64,000 nt of DNA from Octopus vulgaris. Taxonomy: Eukaryota. A model generated the notes under the pieces. That model saw only the letters and a program-made list of their open reading frames with translations. It did not search any database and was not told the DNA's origin. Shown here in pieces: positions 413 through 60,298 of this stretch. The DNA lies in NCBI GenBank assembly GCA_951406725.2, contig OX597841.1, positions 1 through 64,000 on the forward strand. The letters are read 5' to 3'. The position numbers and the translations under genes were made by a program. Numbering within the stretch: position 1 is the first letter of the stretch; each line of letters opens with the position of its first letter.

Positions 413-591
413 CTCATCAATTGGAAGGTGACTCCAGGCATCAAGGATAGGATGTCGGAAGAAATTAGGACAGTAGGCACCATTGCATGTCTCTACGTTC
501 CAGGTTGAAGGACTTCCTATATTCATGAATGATTGATAGACTTTCGAACCAGCTTGCATTGATATGCCATATGTTTTAATCCAATGAGTAT
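413..591 (-). CDS. Gene A coding exon 2 (NTHWIKTYGISMQAGSKVYQSF...CNGAYCPNFFRHPILDAWSHLPIDE); remaining exons expected left of the window
   Basis: TTTTTTAG| acceptor, |GTATTT donor, 179 nt, open frame; not in the ORF track. Confidence 0.88.
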
Positions 592-842
592 CTAAAAAAT
601 AGAAAAGCTTTTTCTTTTTTAACTAGTAGGGGGTCATAAAAACATTCGGGACAATAAAATGTGGGGTTACATAAAAGGCGCGTAAAAAGTAAAAATAGTA
701 ACAAAATAAAATTATAACAATGAAGGATTCTCCAAAAGAGGGAAACCTCCAATCGCTGCACGCGCAGACCCCTTGAAACTACGGTCGTCCGGACCACTAG
801 AGCCCGTAACCTCTTCACATCGCCTTCCTTCAACCGACAGAC

Positions 843-1031
843 GATGAAAAAGGTAGTAGTAGTACCAATAATTGTCAGAGCTCTGGGAACAGTGAACAAA
901 AATCTCGAGAAGTACGTGGAACAAATAGGGGCTGCAATAAGGGTGAAGCACTTGCAGAAAACAGCACTGCTTGGAACCGCTCGAATACTCCGGAAGGTGC
1001 TCGAAAAATAAGAGGTGTTACCTTAGTTCAC
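843..1031 (+). mobile_element. Second short copy of the same R4/Dong-like 3' end
   Basis: Near-identical to 1712-1890. Confidence 0.8.
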
Positions 1032-1394
1032 TCAGGCCGATTGCATTACATTCACCCGCCTTTTAACAAAATTCCTGGGAAGCATTATTAACCTCTCTAC
1101 CCTAACTTTCTTTTCGAGTGAAAGTTGAAAAAGTTAATGAGAAGTTGGCCAAGGAACGAAGTGTCTATCTGAAGCCTTTTCAACCTTGTCCATCACACAA
1201 TTACTTTCGATAAGGCCACCAGATAAGGACACATAAATATGCGGACTGGTTAAATTACTTGGGGTCTAGCTTGCTCCGGACCTGCAGATGGAGAAGAACT
1301 TGGATGAGATGACGAGCGGTTTGGCCAATCTCACACAGAAACAAGCCGAGTAAAAGCTATTTCTGAAATGTCGAGTGGCAGTGGTGAATTCTTA

Positions 1395-1977
1395 CATCGC
1401 CTCTGTCATATAGCCAGGCTTGTCCATTGGACACTTTGCAACAAGTATGGACTTGACAGAGCAAAAAATTGGTACGACCACAAACCCGAAGGCATCATCG
1501 GAAAAAAATGCAAAGATCGTATGGAATTTTATGATTCAGTGCAACCATGAGATAGAGAATAGGAAGCCAGACATAGTCTTAATTGAGAAAGAAAACAAAC
1601 TATGCTGGATCATAGATATAGCATACCCACTGACAACAAGGTATACGATAAGGAAGAAAGAAAAGTCGAGAGATATGATAGGTTAGCTTGGGAAGTTAAG
1701 CAGTTGTGGTCGATGAGAAAGGTAGTAGTAGTACCAATAATTGTCAGAGCTCTGGGAACAGTGAACAAAAATCTCGAGAAGTACGTGGAACAAATAGGGG
1801 CTGCAATAAGGGTGGAGCACTTGCAGAAAACAGCAGTGCTTTGGAACCGCTCGAATACTCCGGAAGGTGCTCGAAAAATAAGAGGTGTTACTGGTAGTGA
1901 ACAGCTGACACCTTAGTACATCTCCAGTGTTAGAAGCTGTGCAAAGGCAATAACAACAACAACAACAACAACAACAA
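1395..1977 (+). mobile_element. R4/Dong-like LINE 3' fragment (RLE domain) with (CAA)n tail, in gene A intron 1
   Basis: VHWTLC..WYDHKPE, IENRKPDIVLIEK..IIDIAYP, KVERYDRLAWEVKQLW, LQKTA; frameshifted. Confidence 0.85.
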
Positions 1978-2534
1978 GCATTTCTACTGGGTAAAGGAAA
2001 TTGGAATAGACTGCCCAGTAGATCTGTTACAAAAGGTTTGCTTCCTTGGCATGGCCAGAATAATGAGGAAAATATTAGCTGAAAAGAATGGATAGCATAG
2101 AACTGTAGACTGCATATAGCAAGTCCGCTACGCATATGAGATTCCAGGAACTCCAACAAAACCTTGATAAAGAGAAATAATAATAATAATAATAATAATA
2201 ATAATAATAATAATAATAATAATAATAATAATAATAATAATAATAATAATAATAAAAAAAAATGAACGAACTATTGAGTTTAGTTTAATGGTCTACCAAT
2301 GCATACTATGAGTTTCTTTGCCCTAGGAGTCGGGAAGACACTCGGCAAGAAATGGAAGCAAATTTGAAAGAAGAAAAAAAGAATAATAAAATAAGTAATA
2401 ATAATAATAATAATAATAATAATAATAATAATAATAATCAACAACAACAACAACAACAACAACAACAACGACGACGACAACAACAACAGCAACAACAACA
2501 ACAATAATTTCTTTAATAATAATACTTCACTTAC

Positions 2535-2862
2535 TTTTAAAGAAGGAAATCTCCTTGGTGTCATTCGTGCTGACGACTGTCATAAAATTATTCGGTGCGT
2601 AAATCTTACAGATATGGCTGACTTTGTTGTAAGTGAAAATTTGTGATTGGCTCCTTTGAGCGAGCGCGGTACAGTCGAATAGGTTTCGTGTTGAGAAGAA
2701 TTCTTGTGCTGGAGATGCCTGAAGGTAAGCATATGTATAACCAGGGCCCAAAGATTTGTAGTAGCCGTCAAGTTCCTGATCTGCGTTAACAACCAGAATT
2801 GTTGTAAGGGTTAACAGCAGGACTTTCGTTGCAGTCGGACGAGTAAATTGTAACCGGGACAT
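2535..2862 (-). CDS. Gene A coding exon 1: signal peptide + degenerate PAN/apple-like module
   Basis: ATG at 2862; VLLLTLTTILVVNA signal-like stretch; donor A|GTAAGT; 328 nt. Confidence 0.88.
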
Positions 2863-57290: not shown

Positions 57291-57418
57291 GAAAATATTA
57301 ACAACTTTAAAAGAACTTTTCACCGATCTAGTGAACCATATCATTGCAGTAAACAGTAAGTGTGTATGTGTATAAGTATGTATGTAAGTAACTACGTAGG
57401 TACGTATGTTTGTACCAA

Positions 57419-57920
57419 TATAGTAGGAAACCGTCAGTTTTAACCATGAACCGTGAACTTTGGCTTTTACTTACAAGTATACTAGAAGAAAAGAAAACGA
57501 GTAGTCCACTTGATAAATGTCAAATAAATGAAGATGTTCACCTGCTATATAGAGTGATACAACGCACCACCTAACAGGTTCAAATCCAGCAAAATTACAA
57601 CACTCGCCCCCTGCCTTAAAAACGTTTAGAAACAGTTAAAAATTTAAGAATGCCCATGACCGTTCTGGAGGTATTCTTACATGGTGTGAACGCCGAAAAG
57701 ATCCGAGTTATATCTAGTTTGCAGCATGCTTTGACAGATAACTTTAAATTAGCTGCAGCCATCGATATAGTACCATTATATGGAGAAGTAGGAAACCGAA
57801 GAGATTTAACCACAGATTTTGAAAGGAAGTTTTCCAAGCTTCCAGTGTCCAAGGGAGCTTTTAACGAAAATCCATTTATAGATATTTCTATCATCGACGC
57901 GTGCAACGCAGAGAGAACAG
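57419..57920 (-). mobile_element. Ty3/gypsy LTR retrotransposon relic: aspartic protease + PPT + 3' LTR
   Basis: ISINGFSLKAPLDTGSLENFLS protease motif; AAGGCAGGGGGCGAG purine tract followed by TGTTGT at 57602. Confidence 0.65.
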
Positions 57921-59279
57921 AAGCAACCGTATCAGTTTGAATTGATGCAGTAACTGAATATTTAGACCTGCATACTTTTGAATAATGATCAATCTTCTTG
58001 AATTTCCTACATTCAGTATTTCGAGCTGGATATTTAAGACGCTCATGTCTTGATACACTTCCACACCCGTAACAGTAGATCCAATGTTTTGATGTATTAC
58101 TAGCCGCTGCACTAGTTTCCTCTAACCTTTCATTCCCTTCTAGTAAAATTCTAGTGAACCAAATTATTGTAGTAAACAGTAAATGTGTATATATTTAAGT
58201 ATGAACGCAAGCAACTAAGTAACTAAGAACTAAACAACAATCTCTACTAATCTCGCGGTAGCAACAGCGAAACAAAGTGAAGAAACGATGAAGTCGTCTT
58301 CAGGTGCAGAAGGGAGTGGGACGATGATGGAAGGGTGTAAAAAATGTGTTTGTAAATCTTTTTTCATACAAAGATGCCTCACCCCCACACCATCACTTCA
58401 AAGGCTGTGGTTTAAAAAAATTAAAAACTCTGAAAACATTTTCCCCAAAATTTTACAATTGTAATCTGTGCGTTTGAAGTGGATTTGTATAAATTTTCTT
58501 CAAAACTTACTTATTTTCCTGAAAGTTATGAGGGAGAAAAGTAGATCGTGGGAATTTTCCAACCCCACAGAAAACTTCTTTCTTATAAATCCCGACGCCA
58601 CAACATCTAAGCGGTATTTGTAGAAAATTTTGTTAAAATGCATTTTTCTGGATGTCATGAAGCAACAAATTCGGGAGTGTATACATCTGTGGTGGTGCCC
58701 TTTTATTTATACGATTTTTCCAATTCATGTTTATTTTATTTATTGTTTACAATACTCACTCTCTCCCCACTCTCTAACGTACGAAGAGCAGATGGATTGA
58801 AAGCTCTGTGTTGCTTTGAGGGGAAGGTAAAAATTGACAAACTGCTTCTCCTCTGTTGTTGGACTACCGTGATGTTTGTTTTACAGACAGAGATTATTAC
58901 TGGTAAAATAATTCCTCTCTCGTTTGCTCGACACACACGTCAAATTTAAATATCTTAATTCCCTCCTTAAGAGCGTTGTTGCTTCTGTGGGCCAGTAGGC
59001 ATGGGTGTTGATAAATAATATTAAAGCAGATAGGTGGTGGTTTCAAATCTCTTCCAGAGATTTAGATTTATAATATTTAATTTATTTCTCTTAAATGTGA
59101 CATACGCGTCAGGTACGTACAAATATATGAATAACAATGATAGCTTGTATTAATGAGAAAAAAAGGAGAATTAACGTTATCAACACCTGTAACCGTAGAC
59201 CACCTATCTCTGGTGCTTTTCGTTTTCTGCGTGATACCTGAGGGTACTAACTAAAGGAAAACTCCCAAACAATTAGCCA

Positions 59280-59850
59280 TCATGGATGATTAAAAAATGG
59301 ATAGCAAAGATGTTCCTTGGTGAACAAGGTCCCCTGTTTTAGTACTGATATTAGAATGGAATTTGGACTTAAGAAATGAGGAATAATCTATTTAAAAAGA
59401 GACAAAAGGGGACACTCCCTAACAGGGATTGAAGTACCGAACAGAGACTTAATGAAGCAAATTGAAACGGAAGGATGCAAATACCTTGGTGCACTAGAGT
59501 TCAACGAGATAATGACATAAGCGATGAAAGACCAACAGAAGATGGAGAATTTCCGAAGACTGGGGTATGTGTTTCGCTCAAAATTGAATGAATGCAATAA
59601 AATCCAAGCAGTTAATACGTGGCAATAGCATCACTTCGTTATGGATCGGTAATTATAAAACGGCAAAAGAGATAAAAGAAAAAAATGAATAGCATGACCA
59701 GAAAAATGTTGAGAGTACACGGAGCCTTCCACACGAAGAGTGATACCAATAGGCTGTACTCGTCCAGAAAAAAGGGTGGGACAAGTTTGATCTGTTGTCA
59801 GGACTGTATCGAAGCAGAGGAAAATGGCCTAGGATGGTATATAAAAAAAT
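59280..59850 (+). mobile_element. Degraded R4/Dong-like RT/thumb fragment in gene C intron 1
   Basis: CKYLG..., LNECNKIQAVNTW, MLRVHGAFHTKSDTNRLY..RKKGG resemble YKYLG, LNAKNKIIGINT and MHHPKSDIERLY of the 30950-33452 element. Confidence 0.65.
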
Positions 59851-59964
59851 GATCTATATACACGCAGAAGAGAGTCGATTCATATGAAAAAGAAAGTTAC
59901 CTCGGCGGAATTAATCATAATGATAATGAAAAAAAAATAATAATAGTAATAATAATTCACTTAC

Positions 59965-60298
59965 TTCGGTAGAAGGACATCTCGTTGCTGTCATTCGTGC
60001 TGACAACTGTCATGATATTTTTCGGTGAGTAATTCTTACAAACACGGCTGACATTGTTGTAAGTGAAGAATTCCGATTGGCTGCTTAGAGAAATTGCGAC
60101 ACATTTCAGTAGACATCGAGTGGAGGAGAATTGTTCTGTCGGAGGTTCCTGAAGGTAACGGTAGGAATACCCAGGAGCCAAAGATCTGTAGCTGCCTGTA
60201 TAAAATTGCTGGTTTGAGGTAACGGTCAGAATTGTAGTAAGGGTTAATAGCAGCAGCACTGTGGTCACGGTTGGAATGGTAGAAGGAAACTGGAACAT
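59965..60298 (-). CDS. Gene C coding exon 1: signal peptide + degenerate PAN/apple-like module
   Basis: ATG at 60298; hydrophobic VLLLLTLTTILTV; C..FFTYNNVSRVCKNY PAN-like pattern; donor A|GTAAGT at 59964 (334 nt, phase 1); paralogous to 33574-33901 and 2535-2862. Confidence 0.9.

Follow-up and report, generated by a model that had tools for sequence, protein, structure and literature searches.

The first 64,000 nucleotides of contig OX597841.1 of Octopus vulgaris (assembly GCA_951406725.2; contig C28 below), here called the window, carry three head-to-tail genes, A, B, and C, on the minus strand. They belong to a tandem gene family whose predicted secreted proteins combine an N-terminal PAN/apple-like domain with a second, C-terminal domain. 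The genes had been proposed in a preliminary description made from the sequence, and a motif search with a listing of splice sites recovered every named exon, reproducing the coordinates, exon sizes, and phases of all three. Spliced gene C is an open frame of 297 amino acids (aa), with exons of 334, 179, 164, 164, and 53 nucleotides (nt), and gene B is one of 296 aa (328, 179, 164, 164, and 56 nt). Every intron is GT-AG, the intron phases are 1, 0, 2, and 1, and the alternative exon 3 donors examined (three in C and two in B) each disrupt the frame. Gene A is incomplete (exons 1 and 2 only, 328 and 179 nt) because the contig itself starts at the first base of the window. All features listed here lie on the minus strand.

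59965..60298, minus: gene C coding exon 1 (334 nt), with predicted signal peptide and PAN/apple-fold domain; exon 1 of three further copies matches it at 98% identity
56436..56614, minus: gene C exon 2 (179 nt), where the C-terminal domain begins; from splicing and the exon 2 search
49546..49709, minus: gene C exon 3 (164 nt), with the hypervariable patch starting at its 3' end; from splicing and the codon site model
48240..48403, minus: gene C exon 4 (164 nt), hypervariable and positively selected; the closest match among the other 26 intact copies reaches only 58% identity
47444..47496, minus: gene C exon 5 (53 nt, to the stop); from splicing
51300..62313, minus: gene C 5' half (upstream DNA, exons 1 and 2, intron 1, and most of intron 2); blocks 91 to 97% identical to copies g13, g17, and g5
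37800..38417, minus: conserved noncoding block upstream of B, closed by the donor GTAAGT following 37862; probably holds the promoter and a 5' untranslated region (UTR) exon
33574..33901, minus: gene B coding exon 1 (328 nt), with predicted signal peptide and PAN/apple-fold domain; a contig of run X1 departs from the genome at donor 33574
30481..30659, minus: gene B exon 2 (179 nt); 100% identical to O. sinensis P0001
28407..28570, minus: gene B exon 3 (164 nt); from splicing
25916..26079, minus: gene B exon 4 (164 nt), with the hypervariable patch; paralogue contigs skip exactly intron 4
25592..25647, minus: gene B exon 5 (56 nt, to the stop); from splicing and paralogue contigs
6203..6699, minus: conserved noncoding block upstream of A, matching the B block at 72% identity; probably holds the promoter and a 5' UTR exon
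2535..2862, minus: gene A coding exon 1 (328 nt); from splicing
413..591, minus: gene A exon 2 (179 nt), from splicing; exons 3 to 5 would fall before the contig start

With gene B exon 2 as the query, 65 of 76 candidates matched in the 2.8-Gb genome, 64 of them on C28. This contig was annotated with per-exon profiles up to position 1,024,000, the region in which intactness was scored. There, 53 units were found on both strands, 27 of them intact (292 to 301 aa). The other 26 comprise 6 five-exon units with internal stops and 20 incomplete ones (fragments, the truncated gene A, and copies in which the annotation script failed to place a start or a splice site). Twenty more exon 2 sites lie at 1.61 to 1.74, 2.20 to 2.26, 5.16, 14.59 to 14.64, and 27.75 to 27.79 Mb of C28 and on C4. 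The array is dense, with dozens of copies. A layout with shared constant exons, as in protocadherins, was rejected: every unit owns its five exons, and both strands are used. Copies g22 to g24 (C28:463897-516280) are three near-identical units spaced about 20.5 kb apart (exons 99 to 100% identical, one with a stop), and they either arose by triplication very recently or reflect an expansion made in assembly.

The gene structures are not a product of chance, since the exon sizes and phases of B and C recur in the 27 intact copies and the same junctions are crossed by O. sinensis and O. bimaculoides proteins from NCBI. A noncoding block of about 620 bases, with a donor at its end, precedes A, B, and many other copies (about 70% identity). 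Given this splice donor, the exon with the ATG probably comes second in the gene, after a UTR exon. Splicing was also evaluated with contigs of four sequencing runs, compared with each of two stretches; the RNA status of the runs was guessed. No run recorded as RNA matched the sequence, and twelve guessed-RNA contig sets shared words with it. A contig of run X1 tracks gene B exon 1 over 232 letters (8 differences) before leaving the genome at the predicted donor, and contigs of X2 and X6 connect exon 1 to exon 2 with undetermined letters between them. The 268-base intron 4 is skipped exactly, with CT..AC ends, in contigs of X1 and X8, whose short sides span 18 and 25 letters. By-eye comparison with the gene models placed loose contig ends at the exon 3/4 junction of g8 (X1) and g15 (X6 and X8) and at the exon 4 end of g10/g11 (X1) and g12/g18 (X2), with 30 of 30 letters matching in each case. 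Across several paralogues, these probable RNA contigs show splicing at junctions 1, 3, and 4.

The copies are mosaics of separable fronts and backs. Across the 27 intact copies, exon 1 identity is uncorrelated with identity in exons 2, 3, and 4 (Spearman −0.10, −0.01, and −0.04, respectively), and the identities of exons 3 and 4 correlate with each other (0.76). Nine front classes and fourteen back classes are seen in 20 combinations. Fronts at least 95% identical accompany backs at most 75% identical in 17 of 351 pairs, and backs at least 90% identical accompany fronts at most 85% identical in 12. We base the mosaic claim on these pairwise identities because tree-topology tests, in which each exon rejected the trees of the others, favor the own-exon tree by design. 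Gene C is the clearest case: its exons 1 and 2 are 97 to 99% identical to those of g5, g13, and g17, and its exon 4 is 58% identical at best to any other of the 27. The similarity of its 5' half to these three copies includes the introns and stops near position 51,300, and the exchange point likely lies inside intron 2. Unequal crossing-over or gene conversion in the introns, all of which are phase-compatible, may have produced the mosaics. Two loci, C4:36051317-36058321 and C28:5157474-5168277, carry dispersed copies that are nearly the same as each other in exons 1 to 3 and differ in exon 4, as in the array.

Related combinations occur in other species. O. sinensis P0029 has the front and back of gene C, and a second C-like gene at 1.67 Mb of C28 could be its orthologue; O. 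bimaculoides P0022 and P0030 join a C-type back (exon 3, 87 to 89%) to another front (65 to 71% identical to the best of the 27). O. sinensis P0001 joins a gene B front to a back of the g3/g33 type, although it is a predicted model that might join neighboring genes. Such rapid change between sister species would suit proteins of gametes, spermatophores, or egg coats, or other adhesive or extracellular-matrix proteins, whose diversity stems from sexual or self/non-self selection and not from pathogens, as would the fusion of the C-terminal domain to ZP, EGF, and TSP1 modules elsewhere. We nevertheless regard this explanation as unlikely, given that the diversity is spread over many paralogues in one genome rather than confined to one fast-changing orthologue and that the proteins lack the low-complexity or repetitive stretches that structural matrix proteins typically contain.

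Variation is concentrated in one patch of the second domain. Mean identity is 42% in residues 213 to 264, compared with 71 to 74% in the rest of the mature protein. Likelihood ratio test (LRT) values for exons 1 to 4 were 21.3, 17.3, 52.5, and 88.9 under a codon site model that was applied to a separate tree for each exon, run with our own code, and is in need of confirmation. In exons 3 and 4, 19 of 20 selected sites fall within residues 215 to 258, around the invariant cysteines C238 and C254. By this model, the patch is under positive selection. Mostly neutral birth-and-death amplification at a contig end, with variability due to relaxed constraint and gene conversion, would explain why the array begins at the contig end, why 26 of the 53 units are broken, fragmentary, or unplaced by the annotation script, and why the averaged ratio of nonsynonymous to synonymous substitution rates is below 1 (0.51 to 0.64 per exon). 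It is highly improbable: fourteen neutral simulations with three-block recombination gave LRT values of at most 5.1, the selected sites cluster while cysteines and core aromatics are retained, and several copies are spliced. Ficolins bind sugars through a subdomain that makes up their C-terminal third, around a short disulfide loop, and tachylectin-5 also has a C-terminal binding subdomain. Because the selected patch occupies the matching position in sequence, residues 215 to 258 around the C238-C254 pair may form a ligand-binding surface.

The proteins are predicted to be secreted. By hydropathy, all 27 intact copies have a single N-terminal hydrophobic stretch (11-residue peak of 2.2 to 2.9 within residues 9 to 27) and none later (19-residue windows all at or below 1.34), consistent with the signal peptide and lack of a transmembrane segment described earlier; a membrane receptor was ruled out by the same profile. 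An N-D-T/S sequon called conserved is present in A, B, and C but is kept in only 15 of the 27. As for the N-terminal module, PAN/apple domains have four to six conserved cysteines. The array copies differ from known examples (the HGF N domain, plasminogen, factor XI, and the apicomplexan lectins SML-2 and MIC4) in that only two cysteines are invariant across all copies and the Pfam score stays below the cutoff (best E value, 0.005). With a home-made PAN profile, real and shuffled N domains were poorly told apart (median of 7.5 bits against a shuffled maximum of 7.5; HHalign probability, 41%), so the assignment rests on structure: the domain matches the PAN fold in a predicted-structure search, and whole-protein Foldseek results are mostly PAN matches. 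Ten single exons and 8 full-length proteins had no Pfam match above the cutoff, and a PDB sequence search with three alignments gave no match at an E value of ≤10.

The likeness of the C-terminal domain to fibrinogen-related folds, loosely drawn in the preliminary description, is tentative in modeled structure and was not seen in the sequence of the array copies. In a fold search with the domain model, ranks 1 to 15 all belonged to the fibrinogen/ficolin/intelectin superfamily, but the best E value was 0.0075 and the template modeling (TM) score at most 0.40; the domain is likely related to that fold. The A-subdomain motif [YF]CD..GGW occurs in none of the 27 intact copies, compared with 5 of 136 outside homologues; PROSITE PS00514 (W-W-x-x-x-C-x-x-[GSA]-x-x-N-G) likewise occurs in none of the 27, and Pfam PF00147 matched none of 8 full-length members. 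HHalign scores against octopus fibrinogen domains, with a shallow template, were no better than those of shuffles, and the 15 classical fibrinogen-domain matches in the genome all lie outside the array. The A-subdomain adjoins this domain in coral P0163 and in both repeats of P0096. The A-subdomain is promiscuous, and its continuity with the domain is therefore support rather than proof. P0096, an unnamed 887-aa protein whose N terminus looks bacterial by eye, holds two full copies of A-subdomain plus this domain.

The array proteins resemble fibrinogen-related lectins (ficolins, tachylectin-5, FIBCD1, and molluscan FREPs and single-domain FReDs; PF00147) as secreted-type invertebrate proteins whose C-terminal model ranks these folds first. 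They differ in having no A-subdomain, PS00514, or profile match and no immunoglobulin superfamily (IgSF), coiled-coil, or collagen stalk. Their domain layout covers five exons and includes a swap point; by contrast, one exon is enough to encode each of several classical fibrinogen domains in the octopus. The FREP arrangement of one or two IgSF domains before fibrinogen is not matched, the N-terminal domain here being a PAN fold. Intelectins and XEEL, divergent fibrinogen-fold lectins, took ranks 2 to 6 in the fold search, but with TM scores of 0.26 to 0.28, a root mean square deviation of about 12, and a sequence match only to the A-subdomain of outside homologues. PMC7588048 defines the FBG domain by an N-terminal SCRDV-like/A-subdomain motif and reports a PAN/Apple domain in snail FREP1 and some Lottia FReDs. 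No protein named as coral USOMP-5-like was returned, and the accessible portion of PMC3748352 gives no domain description.

The domain is present in about 1,000 sequence clusters. Positions conserved over 152 non-redundant homologues look structural, and an enzyme was rejected, as no conserved set resembling catalytic residues was found among the homologues. Effectors secreted by the posterior salivary gland or other exocrine glands, diversifying against prey or predators, are distinctly unlikely, since the same PAN plus C-terminal domain architecture occurs in filter-feeding bivalves and corals. A weak point in the same direction is that six family motifs or words, covering family peptides and locus identifiers, had no match in the searched parts of a posterior-salivary-gland supplement (PMC7693380) and of ink and skin-mucus proteome supplements (PMC10138644 and PMC10142993). 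Close homologues are proteins of O. vulgaris, O. sinensis, O. bimaculoides, and Argonauta labeled uncharacterized, hypothetical, or automatically "Apple domain-containing." This octopod-heavy expansion (several of the proteins are from Argonauta), together with a single variable patch, would suit ligand sampling by soluble chemical-binding proteins, made in the epithelium of suckers or skin, that offer a range of small ligands to chemosensory cells. The folds predicted for the family bind at a surface rather than enclosing what they carry, and we consider such a role very unlikely.

Repeats occupy other parts of the window. Intron 1 of gene B contains a decayed non-long-terminal-repeat retrotransposon (30949-32920, plus strand) with reverse transcriptase-like frames bearing stops and a C-terminal Cys/His motif, at very high copy in the runs. 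In intron 1 of gene C, a 192-aa open frame (57619-58194, minus strand) with zinc-knuckle-like and protease-like motifs, inside the block common to other copies, is likely a relic of a long terminal repeat element. A reverse transcriptase fragment of a long interspersed element lies at 41323-42093, part of it tripled head to tail with a 190-base period, and minisatellites lie at 46105-46666 (29 bases) and 4338-4534 (27 bases). A dispersed short repeat family, by appearance like short interspersed elements, occurs at 13054-13807, 3765-3960, 5778-5887, and 51708-51913, with one copy tandemly duplicated at a 163-base period.

We favor, at a probability of roughly 55%, the reading that A, B, and C are members of a large tandem array encoding a repertoire of soluble recognition molecules, for which the surfaces of microbes or parasites are the most likely targets. 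The view of a secreted recognition or effector family is upheld in part. A secreted, glycosylated PAN plus fibrinogen-like protein would bind a surface ligand through its variable patch. Gene duplication would provide copies whose tips selection alters, and through gene conversion or unequal crossing-over within the first two introns, binding tips already present would come to lie behind new promoter/PAN fronts. What the proteins recognize would be non-self. Clustered paralogues, mosaic blocks, and localized hypervariability are shared with sea urchin Sp185/333, amphioxus VCBPs, and bivalve C1q-domain families, although the domains are unrelated and the immune role of the octopus array is putative. 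The array is real, the mechanism is ordinary, and the family is undescribed. Uncharacterized Octopus "Apple domain-containing" proteins (e.g., LOC118768579, LOC118768577, LOC106873068, and LOC106872447) belong to the same family, but their names are automatic, and most of the O. vulgaris models retrieved are fragmentary or fused (155 to 589 aa). Six locus identifiers tested were named in no paper found, and no description of the family or array was found in literature that excluded subscription papers and the genome-paper and bioRxiv supplements, which may list it as an expanded orthogroup.

Tentatively, at somewhat short of even odds, we propose an undescribed germline-diversified recognition repertoire of the octopus, with about 60 genes on one chromosome that pair interchangeable promoter/PAN fronts with positively selected tips of an uncatalogued fibrinogen-fold domain lacking the A-subdomain. 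It would be a cephalopod counterpart of FREP or Sp185/333 diversity, built on a new family of binding domains with members in animals ranging from corals to amphioxus. C-type lectin repertoires are reported in PMC10140915 to be reduced in molluscs other than bivalves, and classical fibrinogen matches in the genome are few. A fast-evolving secreted family of about 60 copies that is invisible to Pfam is a concrete candidate for a missing recognition repertoire in the octopus. The family also defines an unnamed extracellular domain, and its natural front/back recombinants offer ready pairs for asking which part determines specificity.
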